Origin: Malacoraja senta
Lineage: Eukaryota
DNA: 64,000 nucleotides
NCBI GenBank assembly: GCA_038087875.1
Contig: CM075991.1
Location: 13,704,001-13,768,000, forward strand
Direction of reading: 5' to 3'
Shown: piece after piece, positions 1-23,982 of the stretch
Layout of the letters: each line of letters opens with the position of its first letter
How positions within the stretch are numbered: the first letter of the stretch is position 1
Translations under genes and position numbers: made by a program
Notes under the pieces: generated by a model
The model's database searches: none
The model's input: the letters and a program-made list of their open reading frames with translations, nothing else
Told to the model about the DNA's origin: nothing

Positions 1-2064
1 TCGTTAGGGTTTAGGGTCGTTAGGGTTTAGGGTCGTTAGGGTTTAGGGTCGTTAGGGTTTAGGGGTCGTTAGGGTTTAGGGTCGTTAGGGTTTAGGGTCG
101 TTAGGGTTTAGGGTCGTTAGGGTTTAGGGTCGTTAGGGTTTAGGGTCGTTAGGGTTTAGGGTCGTTAGGGTTTAGGGTCGTTAGGGTTTAGGGTCGTTAG
201 GGTTTAGGGTCGTTAGGGTTTAGGGTCGTTAGGGTTTAGGGTCGTTAGGGTTTAGGGTCGTTAGGGTTTAGGGTCGTTAGGGTTTAGGGTTTAGGTTTTG
301 GGTCGTTAGGGTTTAGGGTCGTTAGGGTTTAGGGTCGTTAGGGTTTAGGGTCGTTAGGGTTTAGGGTCGTTAGGGTTTAGGGTCGTTAGGGTTTAGGGTC
401 GTTAGGGTTTAGGGTCGTTAGGTTTAGGGTCGTTAGGGTTTAGGGTCGTTAGGGTTTTAGGGTCGTTAGGGTTTAGGGTCGTTAGGGTTTAGGGTCGTTA
501 GGGTTTAGGGTCGTTAGGGTTTAGGGTCGTTAGGGTTTAGGGTCGTTAGGGTTTAGGGTCGTTAGGGTTTAGGGTCGTTAGGGTTTAGGGTCGTTAGGGT
601 TTAGGGTCGTTAGGGTTTAGGGTCGTTAGGGTTTAGGGTCGTTAGGGTTTAGGGTCGTTAGGGTTTAGGGTCGTTAGGGTTTAGGGTCGTTAGGGTTTAG
701 GGTCGTTAGGGTTTAGGGTCGTTAGGGTTTAGGGTCGTTAGGGTTTAGGGTCGTTAGGGTTTAGGGTCGTTAGGGTTTAGGGTCGTTAGGGTTTAGGGTC
801 GTTAGGGTTTAGGGTCGTTAGGGTTTAGGGTCGTTAGGGTTTAGGGTCGTTAGGGTTTAGGGTCGTTAGGGTTTAGGGTCGTTAGGGTTTAGGGTCGTTA
901 GGGTTTAGGGTCGTTAGGGTTTAGGGTCGTTAGGGTTTAGGGTCGTTAGGGTTTAGGGTCGTTAGGGTTTAGGGTCGTTAGGGTTTAGGGTCGTTAGGGT
1001 TTAGGGTCGTTAGGGTTTAGGGTCGTTAGGGTTTAGGGTCGTTAGGGTTTAGGGTCGTTAGGGTTTAGGGTCGTTAGGGTTTAGGGTCGTTAGGGTTTAG
1101 GGTCGTTAGGGTTTAGGGTCGTTAGGGTTTAGGGTCGTTAGGGTTTAGGGTCGTTAGGGGTTTAGGGTCGTTAGGGTTTAGGGTCGTTAGGGTTTAGGGT
1201 CGTTAGGGTTTAGGGTCGTTAGGGTTTAGGGGTCGTTAGGGTTTAGGGTCGTTAGGGTTTAGGGTCGTTAGGGTTTAGGGTCGTTAGGGTTTAGGGTCGT
1301 TAGGGTTTAGGGTCGTTAGGGTTTAGGGGTCGTTAGGGTTTAGGGTCGTTAGGGTTTAGGGTCGTTAGGGTTTAGGGTCGTTAGGGTTTAGGGTCGTTAG
1401 GGTTTAGGGTCGTTAGGGTTTAGGGTCGTTAGGGTTTAGGGTCGTTAGGGTTTAGGGTCGTTAGGGTTTAGGGTCGTTAGGGTTTAGGGTCGTTAGGGTT
1501 TAGGGTCGTTAGGGTTTAGGGTCGTTAGGGTTTAGGGTCGTTAGGGTTTAGGGTCGTTAGGGTTTAGGGTCGTTAGGGTTTAGGGTCGTTAGGGTTTAGG
1601 GTCGTTAGGGTTTAGGGTCGTTAGGGTTTAGGGTCGTTAGGGTTTAGGGTCGTTAGGGTTTAGGGTCGTTAGGGTTTAGGGTCGTTAGGGTTTAGGGTCG
1701 TTAGGGTTTAGGGTCGTTAGGGTTTAGGGTCGTTAGGGTTTAGGGTCGTTAGGGTTTAGGGTCGTTAGGGTTTAGGGTCGTTAGGGTTTAGGGTCGTTAG
1801 GGTTTAGGGTCGTTAGGGTTTAGGGTCGTTAGGGTTTAGGGTCGTTAGGGTTTAGGGTCGTTAGGGTTTAGGGGGGTTAGGGTTTAGGGGGTTAGGGTTT
1901 AGGGGGGTTAGGGTTTAGGGGGGTTAGGGTTTAGGGGGGTTAGGGTTTAGAGGGGTTAGGGTTTAGAGGGGTTAGGGTTTAGAGGGGTTAGGGTTTAGAG
2001 GGTTAGGGTTTAGAGGGGTTAGGGTTTAGAGGGGTTAGGGGTTAGGGTTAGGGTTAGGGTTAGG
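1..2064 (+). repeat. Telomere-variant tandem array: (TCGTTAGGGTTTAGGG)n 16-mer to ~1870, then 16-mer variants TTAGGGTTTAGGGGGG and TTAGGGTTTAGAGGGG, ending in ~4 canonical TTAGGG
   Basis: Read directly. G-rich strand is on +, the 16-bp period is kept across variants, and canonical TTAGGG occurs at ~2035-2064. Confidence 0.97.
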
Positions 2065-2257
2065 TTGTGATTTATCGGACAGTGGGACAACATGCCCTCT
2101 GGTGCTTATTGATCTCCCCCTGGGGATTCCTTTTCACTGTGTACTGTCACTTGGTATTTGGCCCACGGTTTCATCACCCTTGTCCAAATCTATTTGCCTT
2201 ACACTTGCCCTTCCATAGATTTGTGCGAGTCAGTCAGGATCCACCCTAGGTTTGAGT

Positions 2258-3153
2258 TTATGCTAGATTTAGGCCATTAGGCTCTTTTGTCTGTAGCGCT
2301 TCTATCCATAGCCTCTCTGCTCTCTTGCGTCTCCCTGTTGTTGCCAGTGGATTGAGGTAGTGGTCAATGTATTCTGCTACCCCATAGGATTCGCTACTAC
2401 AGTCTGACACTATGGGCCTACCTGGCGGTATTTCTCCAGGCACTGTCCACGTGTCTGGGTTTTTGTGTATCTTTGGGAGCATGTAGAATTTCCTCGCCCT
2501 GGGTTGTGTTCCTGTTAGGTATTCTACTTGTTTCTCTAGGATGTATCCTGATGTCTTAAGCTCTTCCAAAATGTCCCCTATTTCCTTTTGTGTTTCTTTA
2601 TATATGGGCTCATCTAACTTAGTGTAGTGTTCTATCTTGTTCAGTTGTCTATGTGCCTCGAAGAGGTACTGTTGTCTGTCCATGATAACTATACTGCTCC
2701 CCTTGTCTGCTGGTTTGATCACTATCTCGTTATTATCTCTCAGCTCTGTCAAGGCCTGCCTCTCTTTTCTGGTGATGTTGGACTTATCTTTTGTTGTGGG
2801 CATATCCTCAATGGCTGATGCCTGTCTCTGTTATAAATTCTGTTATCTGTCCAGGGACATCCTCGTCGTCTGGGGTCCACCCTGTGAGTGGCCTAAAGGG
2901 TATAATTTCTGCAGGGCTCTGCGCCACTGAAGTGGTGTATTAACTTAATGGATCGGTAAAATCTGTGTAGGTCCCCCTGCACTTGTTCCTTGTGGGATTT
3001 GGGAGTAGGGACGAAGGTGAGGCCTCTGTTCAATACCCTCTCTTGGGTTTCGGTAAGGGAGAATGTTTGAGAAAGGTTGATGATTGTTTTCCCTAATTGT
3101 GGGCCCTGCCTCTCTTGGCATGGTGTCCCTAACAGTTTAAATGCTTCATCCAC
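2258..3153 (-). pseudogene. PLE ORF2, copy 1 (internally deleted RT/GIY-YIG; two 1-bp indels versus consensus)
   Basis: Motifs IINLS..LTETQERVLNRGLTFVPTP, IKPADKGSSIVIMD, FYMLPKIHK and PGRPIVS, then directly ERLWIEALQTKEPNGLN*. Confidence 0.85.
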
Positions 3154-4908
3154 TCTCTGATCATGGCTCGGGCTGTGGGTTCTGTCCAGTGGATGTGGTC
3201 TACGTTTACTTTAAACTGGCTGGTGGGGATAGTGGGAATGTGTTTCTGGGTCTGTATGTAGTCATTAAGCTTTCTGAGTGTGACCTGCTCTGGTGCTGGG
3301 AGAGACTGGCTGAAGTTGATCATAGGGACCCATATGCTGGCATTAGGGAATTTACGACTGGCCATCTTGATTAGTGTTTGGAGTTGTTTGATGGCAGTCT
3401 GTGGTCTTTGTTCCTTATTGTTAATGCCAAACGAGAGAATGACTTTTTGAGTTTCTGGGCATTGGATCAATTTGTCAAGGATGGAAGTGCCATGTATGCA
3501 TTTGGCTCCTGGATAGCTGTCCAATTGTATGTTGTTGTTGTTGGAGAATTTGGGGATCCTGGCAATGTTGGAATCTCCAATTATTAAAACAGGCTTGCTG
3601 GGTTGTAGTTTCCAGGTAACATTTTTCTGACATGTGTGTGGGTGTTTAGTTACTTCAGCCAGTCTCTTCCCTGGACCCCTCTGTGTGTGCTGCTGAAAGT
3701 CGTCCTGAGAGTTACTGACTGTGTCTGTAGTCGGGGCCCTCTGGTGCTGTGTGCAGGCCCTACGTGCTGGTCTAACCCTCGGTGCTGGGACCCCCTGTGT
3801 TAGAGTGGAAAGGGTTGGTGTGAGGGAAGGGGTAGCAGTACCGGACCTGTTTCCCTGTGGTACCGCGGTCGTGACCTCCTTTCCGGTTGTCTCCGTGGTC
3901 GGTTCGGTCTCCCCCCTGGAGGGTCTGCGCTCGGCCCGTGGTCTCCGGGGGAGAGGGCCGTGGGATTCGTGGCGTGAGGAGATGCTCCGGTAGATAAGGG
4001 CGGATGTGCTGGGGGAATCGGAGCGCGTGGGCCGTGTCCAGTCATCCGACCAGGTCTCGGTCTCGGACCGGAAGTGGGCCTGGGGCTCGTGTACCGGGGG
4101 GACCGGCTGGGCCGGCTGCTGCGGTCGCAACACCACGATCTGGGGGCTGTTGGGGGGGGTTATGTCGGGGCTGGCGGGAGCGGAGCCGTGGGCGGCGCGG
4201 CCGCGGGGAGCGGGGCCGCGGGGAGCGGAGCGGGACGCGCTCTGGACGGGGTCGGGACGGGTGGTGACCCAAGCGGTGCGTGGCCGCTCGATCTGGCTTT
4301 CCTGTGAAATAGTAAACAAGTCTTGCGGGATATTTACTGCCACATTCGACGTTACAGCCGCTGGCCTACGGGGCTGGGCCTCCCGTAGGCTGCTGCGCTG
4401 TTCAGGCCCAGTCTCTGAGGTCAGGTTCAAAACTCGATGTCTGAGGTCCTCCAATCTGATTTTAAATTTATCTCCCAAATTTCTCTTGTTCCAGATTAGG
4501 GCCTTGGCGACCGCTTCCTGTACACGATCCGTAGGTTGGCCCTCACGGTATTCATCCTCAAGATGCTCCAGACTATTTTGGTAATGTTCAATCAAAATTT
4601 GTCGTGTTTGTTTAGCCCAGGTTTCAGCATTAGAAGCTAATTTTTTTAATGTTTCCTGGGTGGGATTTGCTGGTTTTACAAAGTATGTTAATATCTTGGC
4701 CTGCCTCGTGATACCCTTAGGGGGTACGTTCCGTTCCTTTAGAACTCCTAGATGGTGTAAAGCCTGGGCCATTTTATAAATAACTCTAACAGCAACTGCA
4801 AAGGAATCCCTCTGTCTAGATTGATTCCTGTGCTGGTTGCGATTCACCCCATTAACTGTTGTTAAACAATCCCCTTCTCCCCCCTTCCCTCTGCATGCCA
4901 GAACTCAT
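3129..4908 (-). CDS. PLE ORF1, copy 1 (SGNH/GDSL esterase-domain protein; 1-bp insertion near 4854 versus copy 2)
   Basis: Protein matches 9277..11055. ATG at 4908 is put out of frame by an extra A (attaactgtt versus attactgtt). Confidence 0.85.
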
Positions 4909-5045
4909 TTCTGGCCTAGTCGATTATGCTGTAATGCTAATACAGACAAATCGAAGTATCAATTATCTCTAGCGTCGTAGGGTTAACACCAAGGTGCTCA
5001 CCAATTCTTTGGTTATTTGCCAGCTCGCGGAGACCGCTTGCCGAA

Positions 5046-5108
5046 CTCTTCCCGACTGGGCAACGATTTTCCAGTTTCGCTATCACTGTAGCTTCGTCAG
5101 GGAAAGAG
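5046..5108 (-). ncRNA. Type I hammerhead ribozyme (copy 1)
   Basis: Minus strand reads CUCUUUCC-CUGACGA-A-GCUA(CAGUGA)UAGC-GAAA-CUGG(AAAAUCGUUGC)CCAG-UC^GGGAAGAG. All three stems pair, the core is canonical, and GUC cleavage is predicted between 5054 and 5053. Confidence 0.93.
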
Positions 5109-5442
5109 ATCTAGTCCTAGCCGGTTAGGGTTTTTAAAGGGTAGGTTGATGCTCCTCCCTTTCTGGGTGGAGCTTGCCATGTGTTGGGTCCTAGGACCGG
5201 TCACTTTGGTTGGGCACACCCTGTTTCTTGTTTGGACTGGTTAGCCCTCTTCCTTTGTTGTGTTAGTTACCACATGTCTCTGGTATCTTGTATCCTTTAT
5301 TGCTAATGTTTTCAGCCTCTGTTGATCAATAAATGTGCAAAAATCTCTTGTCCACTATTATGTTCTGCAAGTCTTTAAGTTGTGTCTGTGCTCTGCCAAC
5401 ATGTTTCTAGTCTGTGTGACGCCAAAGGCTCTTCTGGGTAGG

Positions 5443-7884
5443 GGATCCTGGCTGGGGTAGGGGTGGGTATCGTGTTGTGGATTTGTCAGGGTCTCCTCCC
5501 TCTCTTTCGTGCCTGTCTGGTCTATGTGGACGTTTGGTAGGTTCCTCGTATAATGGCTGCTAGGGGGTTGGGGGGGGGTTTCTGGGTAGTTCGGGGTGTT
5601 TTTTGGGGTTGTTTGGGGTGATTCGGTGGGGGTCTGCTGTTAGGTTTAGGTTGTAGGGGAGGGGGGGTTTATCAGTTGTTTAGGGGGAATGTTTTGGGTT
5701 GTTCGGGTTGTTTTTTTAGGGTTGTTTGGGGTGATTCAGTGGGGTCTACTGTTAGGTTTAGGTTGTAGGGGATGGGGGGGGTTTATCTGTTTTTTGTGGG
5801 GGATGTTTTGGGTTGTTCGGGTGTTTTTTTGGGTTTGGGGCGATTCAGTGGGGTCTGCTGTTGGGGTTAGGGTAGTAGGGCAGGGGGGGGGGGGTTTATC
5901 AGTTATATTGGGGAAATGTTTTGGGTTTGGGGTGTTCTTTGGGGTGATCCAGTGGTGTCTGCGCATTAGGTTTAGGTTGTAGGGGGGGGGGTTTCCTTTG
6001 TTTGGGGGAGATGTTTTGAGTTTTTCGGGGTGTTTCTTTTGTTGTTTGGGGTGAGGGGGTCCTGGCTAGGGTAGGGGTGGGTATCGTGTTGTGGATTTGT
6101 CAGGGTCTCCTCCCTCTCTTTCGTGCCTGTCTGGTCTATGTGGACGTTTGGTAGGTTCCTCGTATAATGGCTGCTAGGGGGTTGGGGGGTTTTCTCTGGG
6201 TAGTTCGGGGTGTTTTTTGGGGTTGTTTAGGGTGATTCGGTGGGGGTCTGCTGTTAGGTTTAGGTTGTAGGGGAGGGGGGGGGTTTTCAGTTGTTTAGGG
6301 GGGATGTTTTGGGTTGTTTTTTAGGGTTGTTTGGGGTGATTCAGTGGGGTCTACTGTTAGGTTTAGGTTGTAGGGGATGGGGGGGGTTTATCTGTTGTTT
6401 GTGGGGGATGTTTTGGGTTGTTCGGGTGTTTTTTTGGTTTTGGGGCGATTCAGTGGGGTCTGCTGTTGGGGTTAGGGTAGTAGGGCAGGAGGGGGTTTAT
6501 CAGTTATATTGGGGAAATGTTTTGGGTTTGGGGTGTTCTTTGGGGTGATCCAGTGGTGTCTGCGCATTAGGTTTAGGTTGTAGGGGGGGGGGGGGTTTCT
6601 TTGTTTGGGGGAGATGTTTTGAGTTTTTCGGGGTGTTTCTTTTGTTGTTTGGGGTGAGGGGGTCCTGGCTAGGGTAGGGGTGGGTATCGTGTTGTGGATT
6701 TGTCAGGGTCTCCTCCCTCTCTTTCGTGCCTGTCTGGTCTATGTGGGCGTTTGGTAGGTTCCTCGTATAATGGCTGCTAGGGGGTTGGGGGGTTTTCTCT
6801 GGGTAGTTCGGGGTGTTTTTTGGGGTTGTTTGGGGTGATTCGGTGGGGGTCTGCTGTTAGGTTTAGGTTGTAGGGGAGGGGGGGGTTTATCAGTTGTTTA
6901 GGGGGGATGTTTTGGGTTGTTTTTTAGGGTTGTTTGGGGTGATTCAGTGGGGTCTACTGTTAGGTTTAGGTTGTAGGGGATGGGGGGGTTTATCTGTTGT
7001 TTGTGGGGGATGTTTTGGGTTGTTCGGGTGTTTTTTTGGTTTTGGGGCGATTCAGTGGGGTCTGCTGTTGGGGTTAGGGTAGTAGGGCAGGAGGGGGGTT
7101 TTATCAGTTATATTGGGGAAATGTTTTGGGTTTGGGGTGTTCTTTGGGGTGATCCAGTGGTGTCTGCGCATTAGGTTTAGGTTGTAGGGGGGGGGGGGGG
7201 GGTTCCTTTGTTTGGGGGAGATGTTTTGAGTTTTTCGGGGTGTTTCTTTTGGTTGTTTGGGGTGAGGGGGTCCTGGCTAGGGTAGGGGTGGGTATCGTGT
7301 TGTGGATTTGTCAGGGTCTCCTCCCTCTCTTTCGTGCCTGTCTGGTCTATGTGGGCGTTTGGTAGATTCCTCGTATAATGGCTGCTAGGGGGTAGGGGGG
7401 TTTTCTCTGGGCAGTTCGGGGTGTTTTTTGGGGTTGTTTGGGGTGATTCGGTGGGGGTCTGCTGTTAGGTTTAGGTTGTAGGGGAGGGGGGTTTATCAGT
7501 TGTTTAGGGGGATGTTTTGGGTTGTTCGGGTTGTTTTTTAGGGTTGTTTGGGGTGATTCAGTGGGGTCTACTGTTAGGTTTAGGTTGTAGGGGATGGGGG
7601 GGGGGGTTTATCTGTTGTTTGTGGGGGATGTTTTGGGTTGTTCGGGTGTTTTTTTGGGTTCGGGGCGATTCAGTGGGGTCTGCTGTTGGGGTTAGGGTAG
7701 TAGGGCAGGGGGGGGGGGAGTTTATCAGTTATATTGGGGAAATGTTTTGGGTTTGGGGTGTTCTTTGGGGTGATCCAGTGGTGTCTGCGCATTAGGTTTT
7801 AGGTTGTAGGGGAGGAGGGGGGCTCCGTTGTTTGGGGGAGATGTTTTGAGTTTTTCGGGGTGTTTCTTTTGTTGTTTGGGGTGA
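5443..7884. repeat. Four tandem ~605-bp G/T-rich repeats made of ~120-bp subrepeats with degenerate telomere-like motifs
   Basis: Units start at ~5443, 6057, 6660 and 7268 (TCCTGGCT.GGGTAGGGGTGGGTATCG). Recurrent TTAGGTTTAGGTTGTAGGGG, GGGGTTAGGGTAG and TTTAGGG. Confidence 0.93.
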
Positions 7885-8406
7885 TTCAGTGGGGTCTGCT
7901 GGGGGGGGGGCCTATCCGTGGTTTGGTTATGATTATCATGGGGTGAGTTGTGCTTTGCCTATCCAGTCTGACCATCCTTTGGCTCCCTCTCTGGTCCTCC
8001 CTGTCTCCCTATCCTAGTTTTAGAGTGTCCCTCACTTCAATCCTATGATTATTCGAGCCCACTCTATTTCGGTTTGTACTGTTATTCTCCATCATCCCCC
8101 CTTTGGTTTGGGTTTCACCCTCCTGACTCCATTTGAATCTTTTCTTGTGGCCTGCTCCTTCTGCGGTTTTGATTTGCCTGAGTGATGAAGCCCGTGTCAC
8201 TGTAAAGGTTAGGTTGTGATTTATCGGACAGTGGGACAACATGCCCTCTGGTGCTTATTGATCTCCCCCTGGGGATTCCTTTTCACTGTGTACTGTCACT
8301 TGGTATTTGGCCCACGGTTTCATCACCCTTGTCCAAATCTATTTGCCTTACACTTGCCCTTCCATAGATTTGTGCGAGTCAGTCAGGATCCACCCTAGGT
8401 TTGAGT

Positions 8407-9301
8407 TTATGCTAGATTTAGGCCATTAGGCTCTTTTGTCTGTAGCGCTTCTATCCATAGCCTCTCTGCTCTCTTGCGTCTCCCTGTTGTTGCCAGTGGA
8501 TTGAGGTAGTGGTCAATGTATTCTGCTACCCCATAGGATTCGCTACTACAGTCTGACACTATGGGCCTACCTGGCGGTATTTCTCCAGGCACTGTCCACG
8601 TGTCTGGGTTTTTGTGTATCTTTGGGAGCATGTAGAATTTCCTCGCCCTGGGTTGTGTTCCTGTTAGGTATTCTACTTGTTTCTCTAGGATGTATCCTGA
8701 TGTCTTAAGCTCTTCCAAAATGTCCCCTATTTCCTTTTGTGTTTCTTTATATATGGGCTCATCTAACTTAGTGTAGTGTTCTATCTTGTTCAGTTGTCTA
8801 TGTGCCTCGAAGAGGTACTGTTGTCTGTCCATGATAACTATACTGCTCCCCTTGTCTGCTGGTTTGATCACTATCTCGTTATTATCTCTCAGCTCTGTCA
8901 AGGCCTGCCTCTCTTTTCTGGTGATGTTGGACTTATCTTTTGTTGTGGGCATATCCTCAATGGCTGATGCTGTCTTCTGTTATAAATTCTGTTATCTGTC
9001 CAGGGACATCCTCGTCGTCTGGGGTCCACCCTGTGAGTGGCCTAAAGGGTATAATTTCTGCAGGCTCTGCGCCACTGAAGTGGTGTATTAACTTAATGGA
9101 TCGGTAAAATCTGTGTAGGTCCCCCTGCACTTGTTCCTTGTGGGATTTGGGAGTAGGGACGAAGGTGAGGCCTCTGTTCAATACCCTCTCTTGGGTTTCG
9201 GTAAGGGAGAATGTTTGAGAAAGGTTGATGATTGTTTTCCCTAATTGTGGGCCCTGCCTCTCTTGGCATGGTGTCCCTAACAGTTTAAATGCTTCATCCA
9301 C
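8407..9301 (-). CDS. PLE ORF2, copy 2: RT N-terminal region fused in frame to the GIY-YIG C-terminal tail (~297 aa consensus; one 1-bp frameshift near 8975)
   Basis: ORF-track pieces 8957..9301 and 8407..8952. RT motifs A/B/C (DxxSLY, QxxGxxMG, YxDD) are absent. Overlaps the ORF1 stop by 25 nt. Confidence 0.85.
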
Positions 9302-11055
9302 TCTCTGATCATGGCTCGGGCTGTGGGTTCTGTCCAGTGGATGTGGTCTACGTTTACTTTAAACTGGCTGGTGGGGATAGTGGGAATGTGTTTCTGGGTC
9401 TGTATGTAGTCATTAAGCTTTCTGAGTGTGACCTGCTCTGGTGCTGGGAGAGACTGGCTGAAGTTGATCATAGGGACCCATATGCTGGCATTAGGGAATT
9501 TACGACTGGCCATCTTGATTAGTGTTTGGAGTTGTTTGATGGCAGTCTGTGGTCTTTGTTCCTTATTGTTAATGCCAAACGAGAGAATGACTTTTTGAGT
9601 TTCTGGGCATTGGATCAATTTGTCAAGGATGGAAGTGCCATGTATGCATTTGGCTCCTGGATAGCTGTCCAATTGTATGTTGTTGTTGTTGGAGAATTTG
9701 GGGATCCTGGCAATGTTGGAATCTCCAATTATTAAAACAGGCTTGCTGGGTTGTAGTTTCCAGGTAACATTTTTCTGACATGTGTGTGGGTGTTTAGTTA
9801 CTTCAGCCAGTCTCTTCCCTGGACCCCTCTGTGTGTGCTGCTGAAAGTCGTCCTGAGAGTTACTGACTGTGTCTGTAGTCGGGGCCCTCTGGTGCTGTGT
9901 GCAGGCCCTACGTGCTGGTCTAACCCTCGGTGCTGGGACCCCCTGTGTTAGAGTGGAAAGGGTTGGTGTGAGGGAAGGGGTAGCAGTACCGGACCTGTTT
10001 CCCTGTGGTACCGCGGTCGTGACCTCCTTTCCGGTTGTCTCCGTGGTCGGTTCGGTCTCCCCCCTGGAGGGTCTGCGCTCGGCCCGTGGTCTCCGGGGGA
10101 GAGGGCCGTGGGATTCGTGGCGTGAGGAGATGCTCCGGTAGATAAGGGCGGATGTGCTGGGGGAATCGGAGCGCGTGGGCCGTGTCCAGTCATCCGACCA
10201 GGTCTCGGTCTCGGACCGGAAGTGGGCCTGGGGCTCGTGTACCGGGGGGACCGGCTGGGCCGGCTGCTGCGGTCGCAACACCACGATCTGGGGGCTGTTG
10301 GGGGGGGTTATGTCGGGGCTGGCGGGAGCGGAGCCGTGGGCGGCGCGGCCGCGGGGAGCGGGGCCGCGGGGAGCGGAGCGGGACGCGCTCTGGACGGGGT
10401 CGGGACGGGTGGTGACCCAAGCGGTGCGTGGCCGCTCGATCTGGCTTTCCTGTGAAATAGTAAACAAGTCTTGCGGGATATTTACTGCCACATTCGACGT
10501 TACAGCCGCTGGCCTACGGGGCTGGGCCTCCCGTAGGCTGCTGCGCTGTTCAGGCCCAGTCTCTGAGGTCAGGTTCAAAACTCGATGTCTGAGGTCCTCC
10601 AATCTGATTTTAAATTTATCTCCCAAATTTCTCTTGTTCCAGATTAGGGCCTTGGCGACCGCTTCCTGTACACGATCCGTAGGTTGGCCCTCACGGTATT
10701 CATCCTCAAGATGCTCCAGACTATTTTGGTAATGTTCAATCAAAATTTGTCGTGTTTGTTTAGCCCAGGTTTCAGCATTAGAAGCTAATTTTTTTAATGT
10801 TTCCTGGGTGGGATTTGCTGGTTTTACAAAGTATGTTAATATCTTGGCCTGCCTCGTGATACCCTTAGGGGGTACGTTCCGTTCCTTTAGAACTCCTAGA
10901 TGGTGTAAAGCCTGGGCCATTTTATAAATAACTCTAACAGCAACTGCAAAGGAATCCCTCTGTCTAGATTGATTCCTGTGCTGGTTGCGATTCACCCCAT
11001 TACTGTTGTTAAACAATCCCCTTCTCCCCCCTTCCCTCTGCATGCCAGAACTCAT
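9277..11055 (-). CDS. PLE ORF1, 592 aa: helical N-terminus, Pro/Arg/Thr-rich linker, C-terminal SGNH/GDSL esterase
   Basis: Uninterrupted ORF with SGNH blocks VLIIGDSN, SYPGA, ILSFGINN and VDHIHW. Confidence 0.9.
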   Translation of the reverse strand: MSSGMQREGGRRGLFNNSNGVNRNQHRNQSRQRDSFAVAVRVIYKMAQALHHLGVLKERNVPPKGITRQAKILTYFVKPANPTQETLKKLASNAETWAKQTRQILIEHYQNSLEHLEDEYREGQPTDRVQEAVAKALIWNKRNLGDKFKIRLEDLRHRVLNLTSETGPEQRSSLREAQPRRPAAVTSNVAVNIPQDLFTISQESQIERPRTAWVTTRPDPVQSASRSAPRGPAPRGRAAHGSAPASPDITPPNSPQIVVLRPQQPAQPVPPVHEPQAHFRSETETWSDDWTRPTRSDSPSTSALIYRSISSRHESHGPLPRRPRAERRPSRGETEPTTETTGKEVTTAVPQGNRSGTATPSLTPTLSTLTQGVPAPRVRPARRACTQHQRAPTTDTVSNSQDDFQQHTQRGPGKRLAEVTKHPHTCQKNVTWKLQPSKPVLIIGDSNIARIPKFSNNNNIQLDSYPGAKCIHGTSILDKLIQCPETQKVILSFGINNKEQRPQTAIKQLQTLIKMASRKFPNASIWVPMINFSQSLPAPEQVTLRKLNDYIQTQKHIPTIPTSQFKVNVDHIHWTEPTARAMIREWMKHLNC

Positions 11056-11192
11056 TTCTGGCCTAGTCGATTATGCTGTAATGCTAATACAGACAAATCG
11101 AAGTATCAATTATCTCTAGCGTCGTAGGGTTAACACCAAGGTGCTCACCAATTCTTTGGTTATTTGCCAGCTCGCGGAGACCGCTTGCCGAA

Positions 11193-11255
11193 CTCTTCCC
11201 GACTGGGCAACGATTTTCCAGTTTCGCTATCACTGTAGCTTCGTCAGGGAAAGAG
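11193..11255 (-). ncRNA. Type I hammerhead ribozyme (copy 2)
   Basis: Identical to 5046-5108. Predicted cleavage is 145 nt upstream of the ORF1 ATG. Confidence 0.93.
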
Positions 11256-11594
11256 ATCTAGTCCTAGCCGGTTAGGGTTTTTAAAGGGTAGGTTGATGCT
11301 CCTCCCTTTCTGGGTGGAGCTTGCCATGTGTTGGGTCCTAGGACCGGTCACTTTGGTTGGGCACACCCTGTTTCTTGTTTGGACTGGTTAGCCCTCTTCC
11401 TTTGTTGTGTTAGTTACCACATGTCTCTGGTATCTTGTATCCTTTATTGCTAATGTTTTCAGCCTCTGTTGATCAATAAATGTGCAAAAATCTCTTGTCC
11501 ACTATTATGTTCTGCAAGTCTTTAAGTTGTGTCTGTGCTCTGCCAACATGTTTCTAGTCTGTGTGACGCCAAAGGCTCTTCTGGGTAGGGGATC

Positions 11595-11794
11595 NNNNNN
11601 NNNNNNNNNNNNNNNNNNNNNNNNNNNNNNNNNNNNNNNNNNNNNNNNNNNNNNNNNNNNNNNNNNNNNNNNNNNNNNNNNNNNNNNNNNNNNNNNNNNN
11701 NNNNNNNNNNNNNNNNNNNNNNNNNNNNNNNNNNNNNNNNNNNNNNNNNNNNNNNNNNNNNNNNNNNNNNNNNNNNNNNNNNNNNNNNNNNNNN
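11595..11794. other. Assembly/scaffold gap (200 N)
   Basis: Run of exactly 200 N. Confidence 0.99.
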
Positions 11795-12516
11795 TCTCCG
11801 CTCTCCCCTCCCATCCGTATCCGAGATCTGGCCGCCATTGCTGGTCCGGTTGCCGCCTCGCACGCGACCGCTGGAAAACCAACGCAGAATCACTCCCTGA
11901 CCCTGGAGCTGGAGTAACTCCCTGGAATAACTCTTGCTTCTAGTTTCCTGGTCCTCCATAAATATTCTAAATGGAATTTAAACTGGAGGGCTGAACAATA
12001 ACAGCCTATTGCATTTTATCTGTTTATTTATTGTGTATATATATGGTATATGGTATATAAACACACTGAACTTTTATCTCCTGTTCTGTATTATGTTTAC
12101 ATATCCTGTGAGACATGACAATAAAACTCTCTTGACTCTTGACTTGGACTTAAGCAAAAAAGGGTTCTTGGGGAAAAATGAGGTACCTTAAATTTAGTTG
12201 CATCTGGTTGGGTAACTATGGTAGGGTGAAGACTATTCCATGCTTTAATTGTGCGGGGGAACTCCATGGAGCAGGCAGCAACTCTGGATAGAAGAAATTG
12301 AGTGACGTTTCGGGTAGAGACCCTTCTTTAGACTCCCTCTGGTCTATCCCACACATTAGCATCAAGGGTGTTTTATTCTCTCACTTTCCAGTTAGAACAA
12401 TGAAATCCTTACTTGCAGCAGCACAACAGAATATGTAAACATAGTACTCTGTAAACAATGTTATAAACGAGGAAACAAAACGGTGTATATTTATATATGA
12501 ATATATAACTATACAA

Positions 12517-12518
<2 letters not shown>

Positions 12519-12586
<68 letters not shown>

Positions 12587-12610
12587 ATATATATATATAT
12601 ATTATATATG

Positions 12611-12660
<50 letters not shown>
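12519..12660. repeat. (GT)n/(TA)n microsatellite
   Basis: Read directly. Confidence 0.97.
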
Positions 12661-12662
<2 letters not shown>

Positions 12663-13380
12663 CCCACAAACACACAATTTCCCTCCTGGGATTAACAAAG
12701 TTCTATCGTATAGTATTCTGTGCGTAGGAAGGAACTGCAGATGGTGGTTTAAACTAAAGATGGACACAAAAAGCAGGAGTAACTCAACAGGTCAGACAGA
12801 ATCTCTGGACAAAAGGAAAATATTACGTTTTGGGTTTGGTCTGAAATAGGTTCCTGCACACCTTTGGAATGTGGAGGGAAATAAGAGCACCCGGAGAAAA
12901 CCCATGCGATCAAAGAGAAAAGGAGCAAACTCTATACAGACAGCACCCATATTCAGGATCAATTCCGGGTCTCTGGCACTTTTAGGCAGCAACTTTATGG
13001 CCAATGTACTGCCCCATAGTCTTGAACTTAATTAAAACATACAGTAGCTGTAAGGGGGACATAGCGTCACTTGGAGATTTAAAACTGAAAATGAATATTT
13101 TCATTTTTTTTAGTAACCAAAGTTATCAACGTATAATTTTGTGTGTGTGGAAAACAAAATATAGTGGCACAGCTGGTAGAGTTGCTGCCTCACACGCCAG
13201 AGATCTGTGTCCTCGGGCACTGTATGTGTTGAATTTGTACATTCTCCCTGCAAGCGTGTGGGCTTCCTCCCACATCCCAAAGACGCATTGGCTTTGTAGG
13301 TTAACTTGTCTCTGTAATATTGCCCCAAATGTGTAGGGAGTGGGTGAGGAAAGTGGGATAACAGAACTTATGTGAATGGG

Positions 13381-14550
13381 TAGACAAAAATGCTGGAGAA
13401 ACTCAGCGAGTGAGGCAGCATCTATGGAGCGAAGGAAATAGGCGACGTTTCAGGTCGAGACCCTTCTTCAGACTGATGTGAGGGTGGGGGGGACGGGAGG
13501 AAGAAAGGAAGAGGCGGAGACAGTGGGCTGAGGGAGAGCTGTGAAAGGGAGGAGAAAGCAGGGATTACCAGAAATTGAAGAAGTCAATGTTCATACCGCT
13601 GGGGTGTAAACTGCCCAAGCAAAATATGAGGTGCTGCTCCTCCAATTTACGGTGGGCCTCACACTGGCCATGCAAAAGGCCCAGGACAGAAAGGTCGGTT
13701 TTCAGAATGGGAGGGGGAGTTGAAGTGCTGAGCCACGGGGAGATCAGCTTGGTTATTGCAGACCGAGCGGAGTTGTTGGGCGAAGCGATCGCCAAGCCTA
13801 CAATTGGTCTCACCGATATAGAGCAGCTGACACCTAGAGCAGTGGATGCAATAGATGAGGTTGGAGGAGGTGCAGGTGAACCTCTGCCACACCTGGACAG
13901 ACTGCTTGGGTCCTTGAAAGGAGTCAAGGGCGGAGGTAAAGCGACAAGTGTAGCATTTCCTGCGGTTGCAAGGGAAAGTGCCAGGAGAGGCGGTGGTTTG
14001 GGTGGGAAGGGACGAATTGACCAGGGAGTTACGGAGGGAGCGGTCTCTGTGGAAAGCCAACGGGGGAGGAGATGAGAAGATGAGGCCAGTGGTGGCATCC
14101 CATTGGTAGACAAAAAAGCTGGAGAAAATCAGCGGGTAAGGCAGCATCTATGGTGCGAAGGAATAGATGACGTTTCGCGTCGAGACCCATCTTCAGATTG
14201 ATGTCGGGGGGTGGGGGGGGGGCACACGAAAAAGAAAGTAAGAGGCAGAGACAGTAGGCTGTGGGAGAGCTGGGAATTGGAGGGGAAGGAGGGATAAAGC
14301 AAGGACTATCTGAAATTAGAGAAGCCAATGTTCATACCGCTGGGGTGTAAACTACCCAAGCAAATATCTGCTCCTCCAATGTGTGGTGGGCCTCACTCTG
14401 GCCATGGAGGAGGCCCTGGACAGCAAGATCGGATTCAGAATGGGAAGGGGAGTTGAAGTGTTGTGCCACCGGGACATCAGGTTGGTTATTGCGAACTGAG
14501 TGGAGGTGTGTGCGAAGCGATCGCCAAGCCTGCGCTTGGACTCACCGAGG
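13381..14550 (-). mobile_element. Two tandem 3' fragments of a dispersed Penelope-like element (GIY-YIG end plus terminal repeat with minimal hammerhead)
   Basis: CTSSNLIYCIHCSRCQLLYIGET and KLEEQHLIFCLGSLHPSGMNIDF. CTGAAGAAGGGTCTCGACCTGAAACGTC on - at ~13444-13471. Confidence 0.85.
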
Positions 14551-15451
14551 TTGATCATACGCTGAATAATCCAAGCACATTATTGTTTGGAAATGCAAAG
14601 AAATAATAGAAATTGTATTCATTGCAATGTGTAAAAAGAGTTGAGATACTGTATATAATTTTGCTGCATGTCATTGTGGTATATATCATGTCTTGTTTGG
14701 TGAATATGTTTGGTTTGTGACTTTATTTGAAGGAGAAATAATATGTGAATGCTTCATTGAGCATAATTCCGACTGGTAAGTACGCACTTCGTCCGAGCAC
14801 ATTATCGCACTCGTCATGCAAGCTGTCTTAAATGACCACCTAAACTCTCATTTGGCAACTTAAAAAGCGGCTAAGGTTGCCCGGCTGACAACAGAGAAAA
14901 TAAATTAAGTGAGAGCCCTGCAAGGTGTATATATTTTTGACACTGTCATAGGCCTTTCTTACATATGCTGTCACAACGCACTGTAGTCTCTAAACAACCC
15001 TTCAGTAATTTTCCTTGCCCTCCATTTCAGAATAATAGTGTTTTAAGCCAATAACTCGAAACTAGCACTGGCAATAAATTAAAAAATAAATAAAAAGCGC
15101 AGCTTTCCAGCCCCTTATCTCATTGGCCACGCTCGGCTGCAAATCGGTGTCAATCTGGTGGACCATCTTCCTCTAGTCGTGGGGGGGGGGGGGGGTTGGG
15201 AGGGGCCTCACAGGTGGAACAGCTTAGCGCCTCTCTTCACCTAAATCCGGCCCAGGGTCTGGTGCCAAAAACATTCCACCGACATTGAATAAACAGGGCG
15301 GGGGGAGGGAGGTAGAGAAACATAACATCGGTGGGGACCAGACTGTAACCCTGGTGATCATACCGCCATGTTTGAGTTCCACCCCCATAGAATCATCTTT
15401 AGATTATTCTTACAGTTGTTTCTAATACTACCGTGCTTCATATTTTCTCAG

Positions 15452-15763
15452 ATCCCATAGTGCCACGATTGGTATCCAAAGATGACCAGTGCTCGGGAAG
15501 ACTTGAGATGCGATATGGTGAAACCTGGGGAACCGTGTGCGACCTGCACTGGGATATGGATGATGCCAACGTGGTGTGCAATGCGCTTCAATGCGGAGCC
15601 GCTCTATCTGTGGTGGGAGGGGCTTATTTCGGAGAGGGAACTGGGATTGTGCGGAATGATGTCTTTGGATGTCAGGGTAATGAGTCAAGCCTTTGGCACT
15701 GCCCCCATTCTTCAGGAACTCGTCATTGCAACCACGGGAATGATGTCGGTGTGATCTGTTCTG
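15452..15763 (+). CDS. WC1/CD163-like SRCR receptor, SRCR exon 1 of 6 visible
   Basis: ag|AT CCC...TCT G|gtgag, phase 1-1. RLV...CSGRLEM..WGTVCD..W.....VVC..LQCG. Confidence 0.9.
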
Positions 15764-16935
15764 GTGAGTGCCGCCTTTGGGGGAAATATTTTTAACCTCG
15801 ATTGCACTTGGGAGACAAAGATCAGTTGTTGCCATTTATTTTTAAAATGGCTTATAAAAATGCTTCAATACAATTCAGTGCCATGTCATTTTGATGTGAT
15901 AAGTTTCTCAATATGGAGTGAGGAAGGGGAAATTAAGAATACCTACTTTAGGTGACTTCCATGCGCGGAAAGAGCAATCCGCCAGCAAATCCGGACAGAT
16001 CTGCCCATTGATAAAAATGAATGTAGAACAATTCAAGTTGATTGTGAACAAAAGTACCCTGCATAGAATCTCAGTGTTGTGAGTGGAGAGTTTGGTGTTA
16101 AAAGAGCAGCCATGACCGGCTGTAGAGGTGAGGGAGTCGCACACAAACGTACTGACGATGATGCTGGCGACGAGGACATTACTGACGATGAAACTCTGTA
16201 CAACACATAGAAAGGGATGCAAGAACGATGCATGAGGATAAAACATCGGATTTATCCTGAGATTTCTTAACTTGGTTCGGAATGAATTTGGTCATGCAGC
16301 ATTTTTATAAAAACTGAAGGGGTTCGGAATGGAAACGTCGCCTATCAATTCCTCCATAGATGCTGCTCGACCCGCGTAATTATTCCAACACTTTGATTTT
16401 TGCACTGGGTCAAGTGTGGGTTTTTACAATTCTTGAGAGAAGATGTTCTTGCCTCCTGTATAACGTTATGTCTCAACCAAAGGCCGTCATGGTAGTGAAA
16501 CATCCGAAGCCATCAGTATTCCAGACGGGATCTCAACCTACTTCATCGAAACAAGGAACTGCAGATGCTGTTTTTTGTTAAGACACAAAGTGCTGGAGTA
16601 ACTCCACGGGGTTGGCAGCATCCCCGAAGAACATGGATAGGTTAAATTTCAGGCCGGGACCCTTCTTCAGACTGTTTATGGGGTGGGAGGGAGCAGGGGG
16701 TAGTGGGTGGGAATTCTTTGGGTCTCTGATCGAGGAAAATCCGGAGAGCCTTGAGACCTTCCTGGTGAGGGAGATGTGAAGGGACCTGACCTGCACGGTA
16801 AAGATAGGACATAAGACATTTATTGTCACATACACCAGTTGGTGTAGTGAAATTTGAGTTGCCATTGCAGCACACAAATAAGTTAAACATAACACTATGG
16901 AATTTAACATTAAACATAAAAAACACCCCCCCACA

Positions 16936-17330
16936 GGGGATCTCATTGAAACATATAAGATTGTTAAGGGTTTGGACACGCTAGAGGCAGGAAACGTGTT
17001 CCCGATGTTGGGGGAGTCCAGAACCAGGGGCTACAGTTTAAGAATAAGGATTAAGCAATTTAGAACGGAGACGAGGAAACACTTTTTCAAACAGAGAGTG
17101 GTGAGTCTGTGGAATTCTCTGCCTCAGAGGGGGGTGGAGGCAGGTTCTCTGGATGCTTTCAAGAGAGAGCTAGATAGGGCTCTTAAAAACAGCGGAGTGA
17201 GGGGAAATGGGGAGAAGGCAGGAACGGGGTACTGATTGGGGATGATCAGCCATGATCACATTGAATGGCGGTGCTGGCTCGAAGGGCCGAATGGTGTACT
17301 CTTGCACCTATTGTCTATTGTCTATTGACT
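16936..17330 (+). mobile_element. CR1/HER1-like LINE 3' fragment
   Basis: GDLIETYKIVKG...RTRG...FFKQRVVSLWNSLP, with a (CTATTGT)n tail. Confidence 0.88.
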
Positions 17331-17547
17331 ATTGTATCTCTTGTGTTGTAAACTGATGATCCCGTCACACTGATGTACAAAAAACGTTGTGGCATTATAC
17401 TATTCAATATTATATTATTGAAATATCACTGCACACTCACACTTGGAAGGCAGCTATGTCAGAAAGTGAAAACAGTAAACAAATCTTCCAATTTCACTGT
17501 ACCTTTAACGTAATTAACAGCCTTCACGTTTTGTTTTACTAAAACAG

Positions 17548-17862
17548 GGAACCATGGACCACGACTGGTGGGTGGGAAGAACAGATGTTCAGGCCGGGTG
17601 GAAGTTGTACACGGAGACAAGTGGGGGACAGTTTGTGATCAATACTTCAGCTTGGATGCTGCCGGCGTGGTCTGTGAACACCTACAGTGCGGGGCAGTGG
17701 CCGCAACTCCCGGAGGTGCTCACTTTGGCGAAGGAACCGGCCCCGTGTGGAAGGAAAACTACCGTTGTCTGGGGAACGAGTCCCGATTAGCTGATTGTCC
17801 AGTCTCAGCCTGGGATCAGATTAGCTGTTCGCACAGAAACGACGCCGGTCTCATCTGCTCAG
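17548..17862 (+). CDS. SRCR exon 2
   Basis: cag|GG AAC...TCA G|gtgag. RLVGGKNRCSGRVEV...WGTVCD. Confidence 0.92.
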
Positions 17863-18769
17863 GTGAGTCACCAAAGTCCTTAGTGCGGAAAAGTAGAGGT
17901 TCTCCGGTCGCAGAGATGTTCACAGGAGTGACTTTTCTTAACAATTTAATGAATCTGCCATATTGTGGCAACCATCTTTGTTTTATTTTCAGAGGGACGT
18001 CAGTTGTCTTTCATCTCTCCCCCACTGGTAGGTAGCTGGGTCATTTCAGTGCTATGACCTGTCGATAGACTGAACATGAGTGTGTAGTGCAGAATTCTGG
18101 AGTTTAGCAATAAATATCTTCCTATAAATGGACTAGAACGATGGCGATCTCTGCGATCGGATTCTAATTATCGACATGCCACTGAAATACACAGGCACTC
18201 ATTCTCTCCATAGATGCTGCCTGTTCCGCTGAGTTACTCCAGCATTCTGTGCCTATCTTCCGTGTAAACCAGCATCTGTAGTTCCTTCCTACATATAAAT
18301 AAATGATATTTGCCGCACCAATGTGTCATGGGTTTCACTTTGGATGCGCGATTAGACGCTTTGTGACCTTAAAGTGGGCGAGTAAGAGGAGAGACTGGCA
18401 CGGTTTCGCGGGTTTTCAATGTAGAATTAGAAACGGGAAATCCATTATTTAACGAGTTTTTTTTGACTCACTGAAAACCATTACTGATAGAGAACAAAAA
18501 TAAAGGAACACTTCCAAAAGACACCGCCCATTTTCTGGAAAAGCCACGCGCGAGTCTCGCCGAGCGTTTTGCATTCAGTTCTGATCAGTATATTAGCTAT
18601 TTGATGAATAGGTGACTATCGTTTACTGGTGTTTCTTCAATAGACTGTTGTTTTTCTTGTTGCTGGATCCGGCTCTCTATGTTGGACACATATATTACTC
18701 GGTGTGCTTTTCCGTGTACGCAGAGGAAAGTGACCGGTGCTGTTTATCTGCCGAGACGACATGTGGTTT

Positions 18770-19170
18770 CTTGGTTTCCTGGTTTCCTGGTCCTCCAAAA
18801 ATATTCCAAGTGGAATTTAAACCGGAGGTGGCGGAGGGTGGACTTCAGCAAAAAAGGGTTCTTGGAGAAAGAGCTACCTTAAATTTAGTTGCGTCTGGTT
18901 GGGTAACTATGGGAGGGTGAAGACTATTCCATGCTTTAATTGTGCCGGGGGAGAATGAATTGCTTTACACATTTGTCTTGGTAGCAGGTATCTCAAATTG
19001 GATCGAATGCCCTCGACTGCTCCTAATAGGTTTGGTAATCTATATCGAACTCAACATTTAACATTTTGTAAAAGCAGGTCAAACGGTGAGCTTTTCGTCT
19101 GTCTTGGAGAAGGTTCCATCCCAGTGAATTCAGAAGTTTGGTAATGTGGGCAAGATGTGGGCAACTGTGT
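18770..19170 (-). mobile_element. LINE (CR1/L2-group) 3' fragment; a related fragment lies at ~11935-12260, interrupted by a Rex1-like tail
   Basis: Minus strand encodes RGHS..F..P.....TIKAWNSLHP. Sequence is shared with 11935-11990 and 12146-12260. Confidence 0.65.
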
Positions 19171-19276
19171 CAGCAAACAACCCTTACAACTAGTAGCTGA
19201 CCAGCTACGTGTTGATAATGAATGGAATGTTTTGGCTTCAGTTTCAAAATTTCAGTCAACCTGTTTCGTTTTGTAG

Positions 19277-19591
19277 ATGAGAGTTGGTCTCTGAGGCTGA
19301 GCAATGGGGGCAGCCGCTGCGACGGCCGGGTGGAGGTTTACCACAATGGCAGCTGGGGGCGAGTACAGGATCGCTCCTGGGACATCAATGATTCCAACGT
19401 GGTCTGCAGAGAGTTGGGCTGCGGCTCCGCCATATTCGCCTACAATTCCTCAAGGTACGGAGAGAGTGAGCTGCCCGTGTGGGTGAACGACGTTCACTGT
19501 GAAGGGGACGAGGCGCAACTCCGAAATTGCAGCCCATTTACCATGAATCCGTTTCTCACTGACAGCATCGGCGTTGGGGTCCTGTGTTCAG
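19277..19591 (+). CDS. SRCR exon 3 (lacks Cys2/Cys7 pair)
   Basis: tag|AT GAG...TCA G|gtga. LRLSNGGSRCDGRVEV..GSWGRVQD. Confidence 0.92.
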
Positions 19592-20862
19592 GTGAATATT
19601 GTTACAAAGTTTGAAATAAAAAATGATAAACTTTGTGAAAGATTAATAATGAGAAGGAAGTTCGAGTTGTAGAGATATGTAGATCGGCATCTGGCTCTTG
19701 GGCTCATAATTCCCGCGCCAATAATCAAATCCCCTTTTACACGATGTCCATTGTGTTCTCCCGACAACTGCCACCCCCAGACTACAACTCACTTACACAC
19801 TGGGGACAATATACAATGGCAGGCGATGGTGAGGAGTGGAGCTTGTGAAGGAGAAGTCTACACAAGAAACGCCCTGGTGTGGTGTGGAACAACACCGGGG
19901 GCATTTCCGAGGGACAGCTCGTGGTTTTGCCGGGCTGGCTCCAGACGGGGATTTCGGGGCCTGCTTCCAATCAGCAATTCTAGGCGAGCGGGGTTTATCC
20001 GGGCGTCATCACCCCGTTCTCACCGAGTTCTCCTGACCCCCATTGTGAACGGACAGTCGGGCGCTTTGACAACAAGCCACAGCGCCATGTTGGTCGCTTC
20101 CCCACCGTCTGGTCCACCCCTTCGCCTGACAGCCCTGGCGGCTGAGCGCCCCCCAGTGGAGACATGAGGAGCCCATGGCCCAGACCCTGAAAACATCCGG
20201 TTTTATATGAATAATCTACAACCACCGAGTGACATGGGCGATGCTTGCCACTGTGAACCGAGTGTGGTCCTGAGGGCAGTTCCTCGAACCAAGAAGTCGG
20301 TCGCTAGGGTCACCCAGCTGGGATGGTCGTGATGTCCATGTATGTATCTCTGCAGGGTTTGAAGTCGGAGAGCCAGTCTGTGGGTTCAGACCGTAACCAA
20401 CACGCCGAGTCTTACAGCATTTTATGTTTCAACTTCTACTTTAGATTTCCTCTGAGCTAAATCTGAGCTAAATGTAAAATTCTTGTAAATATTATTGCTC
20501 AAGCAGATTCAGAAATTCTGACCAAGTGACAGACATAATGTGCAATGACATAGGGGACCCCCTGTTTTATCTTCTTCCCCTCAGTTATCGGGCTTATGAA
20601 CGGTCCTTCCATGAGCTGGGATACTGTACGATTCACCTCTACCCCATTGCGGACTTCGGACTTTGTTGATAGAACTGGTGCGCTAGATGCGGAAAAGTAT
20701 ATTCTGCACATTGTATTTTTCCGTGTATCTATCTATTGCAGTTTGACTTGCTTGTATTTATGTATAGTATCAATTGATCCGATTAGATTGGATGCAAAAG
20801 TTGATCATTGTACACAATAATAACCTAAACCTTTGATCAACTCCCCTGCTGTTATTCAACAG

Positions 20863-21177
20863 ACCACCGCCGATTACGACTGACCGGGGGTGGAAGTACA
20901 TGTGCTGGACGACTGGAGCTTTATTACCACGGGTCTTGGGGCACAGTTTGTAATGACTTATGGGATCTGCTTGATGATAACGTGGTCTGCAGGCAGCTGG
21001 GTTGTGGATATGCTTTGCAAGATAAACCTCTTGGATACTGTGGAGGAAGTCGTGGTCCTATTTGGTTGGATGAAGTAAGATGCTCGGGTAACGAATCATA
21101 TCTCTGGGAGTGTCCCTCCGCACCACTGGGTGAACACGATTGCAGTCATAAAGAAGATGTGACAGTGAAGTGTTCTG
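20863..21177 (+). CDS. SRCR exon 4
   Basis: cag|AC CAC...TCT G|gtaag. LRLTGGGSTCAGRLELYYHGSWGTVCND...GPIWLDEVRCSGNE. Confidence 0.92.
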
Positions 21178-21404
21178 GTAAGGGTATCTTCAATCTGCTG
21201 ATTCCCTGCAGCATGGGATGGGAGGATTCATTCCAGAGATGTAATAAATAATTTACAGCATCCAAAGGGAGCATTGACTGCGGGTAACGGTGCAGAGGCT
21301 TCACTCTGAGTAAGTTGTCACCCACTCAACATCAAACTCATTCCGCGCGCTGCTCTGTTGATTTCTCTATCAGCAGTTTCCTGGGTCCACGGAAGTTAGA
21401 ACAT

Positions 21405-23664: not shown

Positions 23665-23982
23665 AGCACAAAGAGATGCGCCTTGTGAACGGAGAGCATC
23701 GATGTGAAGGGAGAGTGGAAGTGCGGTACAACGGGACATGGGGGACAGTGTGCTCCGAGAAGTTTCACAGAAAGGATGCGGAAGTGATCTGTAAACAAGT
23801 AAAATGTGGACCTCTCATATCTATTTATTATGACGCCTGGACATTTGGAGCGGGTTCTGGGCCCATATGGCTGGATGAGATGGAATGTAATTCGCACGAG
23901 TCGACCCTTTGGCAGTGTCAGTCAGACCCTTGGGGGAAACACAACTGTCGCCACGGGGAGGATGCAGGTGTTGCATGTGAAG
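23665..23982 (+). CDS. SRCR exon 5
   Basis: cag|AG CAC...GAA G|gtaa. MRLVNGEHRCEGRVEV...GPIWLDEMEC. Confidence 0.92.

Follow-up and report, generated by a model that had tools for sequence, protein, structure and literature searches.

A telomere-associated Neptune-type Penelope-like element of Malacoraja senta, joints at its predicted hammerhead cleavage site and a rare derivative lacking the reverse transcriptase core and endonuclease

Penelope-like elements (PLEs) that carry an endonuclease (EN+) move throughout the genome with (TA)n among their preferred targets, and those lacking one (EN-) attach to telomeres, according to PMC8557442; a 2026 preprint adds that EN- PLEs have not been found in vertebrates. 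Hammerhead ribozymes are present in fish Neptune PLEs (PMC4209133), their function in EN+ PLEs being described as unclear (PMC8557442). The Neptune-like PLEs of fish and mollusks include esterase-bearing members (PMC5408684), and an ORF1 frameshift is drawn for some PLEs (Fig. 1 legend, PMC8557442). Two non-autonomous systems bear on the present case: retrozymes, given as PLE derivatives in bioRxiv 10.64898/2026.07.22.740005, and Drosophila HeT-A, which corresponds to TAHRE minus the reverse transcriptase (RT; PMC6581046).

The window (the whole stretch of 64,000 nucleotides of M. senta DNA analysed here) contains two deleted copies of a PLE whose full-length parent occurs in the same genome. 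Unlike the Neptune EN+ PLEs of PMC8557442, described there as inserting genome-wide, this family turned up nowhere but on TTAGGG-type repeats or its own tail. In joining telomeric repeats through a short reverse-complement stretch at the 3′ junction, in being truncated at the 5′ end by telomeric repeats, and in forming polar head-to-tail arrays with GDSL-type ORFs, it resembles the Athena and Coprina EN- PLEs and the Terminons as presented in PMC6431247 and PMC8557442. Those elements are however without an endonuclease, whereas the parent here keeps an intact GIY-YIG and hence differs from the telomeric EN- type, and their telomeric stretch adjoins the hammerhead, whereas about 3 kb separate the CCTAACC used here from the ribozyme that follows downstream. 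In the literature searched, no telomere-specific EN+ PLE was found for a vertebrate and no joints at a ribozyme cut; Repbase and some earlier PLE papers lay outside that scope, and a prior description is possible.

The deleted copy shares with HeT-A, seen beside TAHRE and TART, an ORF1-bearing unit without RT, polar head-to-tail telomeric arrays, autonomous relatives alongside and a long strand-biased non-coding region (PMC6581046). HeT-A is a jockey-clade, gag-only element, the predominant telomeric element of a host without telomerase. The deleted copy by contrast is a PLE with an SGNH-like ORF1, retains a non-catalytic remnant of ORF2 (290 aa), is interspersed with TTAGGG and makes up about 2% of element 3′ ends with zero divergence. 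The comparison with HeT-A drawn in the earlier note, which was made from the sequence alone, thus holds as an analogy (ORF1 kept, RT lost, telomeric arrays) but not for an established lineage; by that analogy only, the deleted copy may work like a nascent HeT-A. Non-LTR retrozymes are likewise non-autonomous, hammerhead-bearing tandem PLE derivatives, but their families span 51-972 bp and are non-coding (bioRxiv 10.64898/2026.07.22.740005), against a unit here of 6.1 kb (6,149 bp) with a 592-aa ORF1. The Neptune-like MjPLE01 of kuruma shrimp has also lost its endonuclease; as cited in PMC8557442 it lost the endonuclease only, whereas the loss in the deleted copy here extends to the RT core and the parent retains both.

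Both window copies lie on the minus strand (copy 1 at 2058-5447, copy 2 at 8207-11594) and differ by 0 substitutions and 4 single-base indels. Their ORF2 reads through KPADKG, FYMLPKIHK, GRPIVS and YLNPLA and then directly into TTGRRKRAERLW...GLNLA and a stop, while full-length relatives have QQHPSY at the deletion point and a 759-aa RT plus GIY-YIG frame. Measured against these natural full-length copies, the deletion is 1,329 bp, that is 443 aa in frame, and it takes away parent residues 290-732 with DVESLY, GTAMG, FLDD, the CxxxxCxxC linker and the VYAIRC/YIG core of the GIY-YIG domain. The junction falls at 8490..8491 in copy 2 and at 2342/2341 in copy 1 (both on the minus strand), with imperfect homology TGG(C)ACAACA on both sides but no exact overlap; it differs by one A from what exact homology would have given, an out-of-frame product, and the remaining two frames across it reach a stop inside about 75 nt. 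One deletion in three is expected to be in frame by chance. With the motifs of the RT core, the Zn-linker and the endonuclease absent, the deleted copy is predicted to be catalytically dead. The earlier note had proposed such an in-frame loss, with N-terminal RT motifs jumping to the last GIY-YIG helix in both copies, and the translation and the motif-by-motif comparison bear it out. It had also quoted a different +1 indel in each copy; both are present, although a second ORF2 +1 (2914) and an ORF1 +1 (4854) in copy 1 had been missed. The search that it suggested for a full-length parent returned dozens of intact copies in the same genome, one of them in the same array as deleted copies, supplying the autonomous partner that it had called for, and the junction is not private to this contig, being found on both C15, the scaffold on which the window occupies positions 13,704,001-13,768,000, and C3241.

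To judge by motifs and profile matches, the parent is an intact EN+ Neptune-type PLE with an SGNH-like ORF1. It combines a PLE-type RT with a C-terminal GIY-YIG, the latter above the Pfam cut-off (27.2 vs 22.6 bits) and RVT_1 just under it (E 3e-6), and CGQRRCGAC at residue 629 corresponds to the CxxxxCxxC linker by which PMC8557442 recognises Neptune. Fish homologs are 45-55% identical to it, and the named relatives of highest identity, from Callorhinchus, Gasterosteus, Hypanus and Oryzias, reach 59-66% over partial lengths. The interspersed repeats of the window appear to be of a ray/skate-like kind, in line with a fish host that is probably cartilaginous. The family appears near-identical and largely intact, with a mean distance between parents of 0.0015 per site (50 copies) and ORF2 open in 28 of the 47 copies examined. 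A 45%-identical PLE ORF2 (P0088) is filed as a protein of the bacterium ‘Candidatus Epulonipiscioides gigas’ and is likely to be fish host contamination of that assembly. The window itself holds degraded copies of a different, dispersed Neptune-type family (13500-14200, 36400-38700, 45367-45984, 50512-51030 and 59422-59763; CxxxxCxxC ... IYCIRCSRC..LYIGET). It also holds LINE copies, presumably of CR1/L2 type, with a GDSL-like ORF1 (RRAILIGDSIVRG) at 26772-30882 and 55214-57751, a second esterase-bearing retroelement, and at 15403-24585 repeated SRCR-domain-like exons (GRLEV.Y..WGTVC), which from these motifs we take to be a scavenger-receptor gene cluster.

ORF1 of copy 2 (9277..11055, minus strand) encodes 592 aa with a predicted helical N-terminus, a low-complexity middle and an SGNH/GDSL-like C-terminal domain (GDSN, G, GxN, DxxH), whose GDSN and DxxW/H columns are conserved in 14 sequences. 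Its Pfam match to Lipase_GDSL_2 is below cut-off (E 0.00087), the sole match in a PDB profile search was the retrotransposon ORF1 protein 4c1b (E 0.13) and a single-sequence AlphaFold model was of low confidence (mean pLDDT 43.5). ORF2 has no ATG upstream of AIEDM and overlaps ORF1 in the -1 frame. The overlap (ORF1 ..H-L-N-C-stop, ORF2 F-K-L-L-G) contains T_TTA_AAC at 9283..9289 of the minus strand, read from 9289 to 9283, which we take to be a standard -1 slippery heptamer. Among 120 ORF2 homologs, 63 were testable at this place (4 had no anchor and 53 were too short) and 49 of these carry xK[L/C] there (FKL 27, VKL 14), against 20 of 3,966 control windows with [FV]KL, while in 8 of 13 ORF1 homologs LN occupies the C-terminus or a place no more than 6 aa from it; both frames therefore conserve the same heptamer and the overlap is likely to be a -1 ribosomal frameshift site, as predicted from these alignments. 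A predicted stem-loop 5 nt after the heptamer (9249..9277, minus strand; -13.9 kcal/mol) is no stronger than shuffles, and the fold of the 82-nt frameshift region was not significant against them (z -1.25).

The association with telomeric sequence was examined at 81 3′ ends, all of which terminate at ACAACCTAACC; 38 of them adjoin telomeric repeats or variants of these, and 43 the tail of the element itself. As 100 of the 218 3′ ends matched by exact search genome-wide were listed, the tally covers part of the family; among the 81, the family is restricted to TTAGGG-type repeats or its own tail. In the window the 3′ UTR (8207..8406, minus strand, with an allele private to deleted copies at 8375) ends in this stretch, which is complementary to the telomeric G strand. 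The array's target side (1..2057, plus strand) consists of TTAGGG repeats that grade into a telomere-like satellite of 16 bp; together these span about 6 kb and extend beyond the left edge of the window. Between the copies lie the tail and a spacer of about 3 kb (5109..8206, minus strand) with four repeats of about 600 bp, about 78% A+C on the element strand as measured on the C1804 unit and so G/T-rich on the telomeric G strand, and beyond copy 2 the array is cut by an assembly gap (11595..11794), inside which further copies may lie. C17 starts with (TAACCC)n followed by sense copies, a polar array, and TTAGGG tracts, some of them reaching kilobases, are scattered among the arrays. Of three sites examined deep in scaffolds, one lies on telomere-variant repeats with the 16-bp satellite (C5) and one inside a (TAACCC)n tract (C17); the third, on C12, is a piece of 104 bp flanked by a short run of TAACCC at its 5′ side but not at the other. 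Among contigs of public runs aligned to the window, those of X4, from another organism, have a telomere-like loose end at 8207, while the loose end in X5 is not telomeric.

Several further observations concern these arrays. On the G strand the spacer of the C1804 unit is rich in telomere-like words (37 TTAGG, 62 TTGGG), and many 5′ truncations capped by telomeric repeats fall within the spacer. The array, telomeric satellite and shared subtelomeric block of window positions 1-11794 suggest a chromosome end; about 630 kb of scaffold lies beyond the 200-N gap and the last 10 kb of the C15 scaffold has no long tandem repeat, and the internal position of the C15 array may reflect a scaffolding misjoin or a fossil end. 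Near the scaffold end of C14, at about 18.2-18.41 Mb, arrays and kilobase TTAGGG tracts run in both orientations, which suggests joined ends or an end-to-end arrangement. A 15-bp GAC/GAA-rich satellite is present at C15:1-10000, another end of C15, and from C14:18,406,400 onwards, where it flanks an element.

Each window copy carries a type I hammerhead on the minus strand, at 11193..11255 in copy 2 (CUGACGA..GAAA..GUC, predicted cut 11201/11200) and at 5046-5108 in copy 1 (predicted cut 5054/5053), and the motif is intact in the deleted copies. The lowest-energy fold of its 63 nt has the three hammerhead stems. An Rfam scan of 1900-13000 gave no hammerhead match and only AT-repeat miRNA noise, and folding with flanks was not significant (z -0.90; stretches of 82-86 nt were used here and at the frameshift site). 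Within the regions examined, sequence ending at the predicted cut (unit position 3146) meets 8 different internal positions, in 32 occurrences, and each of 27 other break positions has at most 2 partners once the VNTR positions 330-2800 are excluded. Among the targets listed, these joints show no GTC homology, and a single reciprocal joint, entering at the base after the cut, was found on C5539. Across the genome, GUC runs into a non-canonical base at 38 sites, a count made without an offset control at that scale. Since 8 rearrangements join at the predicted cut, cleavage in vivo and template jumping by the RT are indicated; in the simplest reading the ribozyme would cut in vivo and the RT would jump from the point where it stalls onto the new 3′ end. 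The reciprocal joint belongs to 4.5-kb units (C5539:47004-38024) in which tail position 184 meets the base after the cut, the ribozyme and spacer being gone and ORF1 and ORF2 kept. At C14:18,273,530-18,312,200 there are long, retrozyme-like tandem arrays of 330-bp units (3′ UTR and tail) and of 1,561-bp units; in the 1,561-bp units the joint lies at the ribozyme cut, and one strand of stem I is thereby removed.

Exact searches for the junction found 5 deleted copies, two on C15 and three on C3241, a minimum because both arrays end at a gap or a contig end. The two arrays probably mark separate chromosome ends. Behind them lies a subtelomeric block common to 16 contigs at 97-100%, and that of C3241 is 100% identical to C9 and 98% to C15; beside the array C3241 matches C9 at 98-99% and C15 at 93-97% (98-100% against 93-98% overall) and carries different satellite variants. 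That C3241 is the other haplotype of C15 is for the same reasons less likely. The junction of copy 1 with (TAACCC)n falls at the canonical base, and a private allele lies 168 nt from it; had the deleted sequence recombined into a resident parent, the crossover would have had to fall inside those 168 bp. On C3241 a stack of three deleted units lies distal to a full-length unit without their alleles. The deleted units have a spacer variant of their own, present in 3 of 3 of them and in 0 of 15 second repeats of full-length units, and it extends as far as the repeat closest to the ribozyme, which places the haplotype switch within about 1 kb around the predicted cut. Both the copy-1 telomere junction and this interval fit copying in trans. 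We accordingly favour, with a probability of roughly 0.6, that the deleted copy was mobilised in trans as a recent passenger of the parent's RT and so reached two ends.

The strongest competitor, which we hold rather unlikely, is a single DNA-level origin of the deletion in the proximal C15 copy, followed by tandem duplication and by transfer to C3241 through subtelomeric recombination in the 3-kb spacer, the deleted element never having been retrotransposed. An out-of-register crossover between spacer repeats is present in the boundary spacer of C3241 and fits DNA recombination equally well, the 97-100% block common to 16 contigs is in keeping with it, and locally homogeneous arrays exist elsewhere, amplification being evident in six C14 units with the same 5′ truncation and in the 330-bp and 1,561-bp arrays. 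Against it, no full-length copy with the two private alleles remains (0 of 45 and 0 of 53 full-length copies; a third allele is in 1 of 46), and the switch interval contains the ribozyme cut, where jumping in this family is evident.

Whether the deleted form has become an established HeT-A-like subfamily, with selection keeping ORF1 and mini-ORF2 to supply ORF1, an RNA-binding RT N-terminus or telomere capping, turns on its numbers and age, which make this improbable. ORF1 is open (592 aa) in 3 of the 4 deleted copies that include its start, the hammerhead is intact, and location and polarity match telomeric arrays; the one-A departure of the junction from the out-of-frame exact-homology product also favours a kept frame. 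Mini-ORF2 (8407..9289 in copy 2, minus strand), in which the N-terminal part of the RT continues in frame into the 27 C-terminal aa of the GIY-YIG domain, is open in 2 of the 5 natural deleted copies, both on C3241 (316 aa stop-to-stop, 293 aa from the slippery site), and its breaks resemble errors: copy 2 has a +1 base at about 8975 and copy 1 (2058..5108 from hammerhead to 3′ UTR, minus strand) at about 2821 and 2914, with a further one in ORF1 at about 4854, and because T8975 is absent from the contigs of all four public runs aligned to the window (X1, X2, X4 and X5) the window's frameshift indels are probably assembly errors. An open frame such as the earlier note derived by consensus (about 297 aa there) thus exists in natural copies, and no consensus is needed to obtain it. 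Set against a selected subfamily, the deleted copies are 5 of 218 3′ ends (54 parent-type matches to the left side of the junction, in 19 contigs, were found by exact search) and are identical in 10 of 10 pairwise comparisons, with 4 substitutions in 3,093 sites to their nearest parents. Mini-ORF2 has no substitutions among the five and no sign of being kept by selection; as the copies are identical its openness reflects age only, and it is most likely a neutral remnant. ORF1 of deleted copies has 3 non-synonymous and 0 synonymous changes against the column majority, and shared variants in parent ORF2 (5 synonymous and 5 non-synonymous over about 476/1,732 sites) are few and mixed with assembly error. 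Other derivatives are commoner, with 32 units of 330 bp in one C14 run and, among the matches listed, at least 17 of 1,561 bp and at least 8 of 1,443 bp, and of 120 short homologs one alone, the teleost gene model P0152, has an RT N-terminus running into a GIY-YIG tail, and its breakpoint is different. By these measures the deleted form is a rare and apparently very young derivative without sign of selection. After the comparison of copy numbers that the earlier note proposed, its dead derivative keeping ORF1 and ribozyme stands, its amplification is slight, and a successful subfamily held open by selection finds no support.

Among the matches listed, the junction was unseen in the contigs of the six public runs used, those with small word shares having been left aside; this is weak evidence of absence, as contigs drop rare variants. 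Contigs of X1, X2, X3 and X19 matching the full-length copy show no deletion joint among the matches listed, and those of X1, X2, X4 and X5 diverge into parent sequence at 8490/8491 of the window. That the deletion is an assembly artefact is nevertheless highly improbable: although the window copies adjoin a gap and have scattered single-base indels, and no contig of the runs examined bridges the junction, the same junction occurs in 5 copies on 2 contigs, tied to private alleles and a private spacer variant.

A scheme built around trans-mobilisation would run as follows. Read-through RNA of an array would be cut by the hammerhead into units of ORF1, ORF2, 3′ UTR, CCTAACC, tail and spacer, from which ORF1 would be made alone and, via -1 frameshifting, an ORF1-RT-EN fusion. 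For priming, the RT would use the 3′ end of a telomeric G strand, either already free or created by GIY-YIG nicking, paired with the CCTAACC; it would copy toward the 5′ end of the RNA and then jump to the ribozyme-made 3′ end of another RNA, such RNA-to-RNA jumping giving head-to-tail chains. One lineage would have lost 1,329 bp at short imperfect homology, by RT slippage or end-joining repair, with all cis signals kept, and would then have been copied in trans and amplified locally. Taken whole, the picture of a vertebrate with an active, telomere-specialised EN+ PLE, whose RT jumps on hammerhead-cut ends to give chains like those of HeT-A and TART and whose deleted copy is a newborn ORF1-only passenger in trans, is a tentative one, advanced as possible.

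Taken alone, the deletion is nothing unusual for a retroelement family this young; the telomere-specific parent with its ribozyme footprint is the stronger result. Eight independent joints at the predicted cleavage base may be read as a genomic footprint of an RT using ribozyme-made RNA ends. As the family appears near-identical, largely intact and telomere-restricted, ribozyme function, telomere targeting, frameshifting and trans-mobilisation are directly testable in it, and one natural element with its natural, predicted dead derivative would suffice for testing all four.
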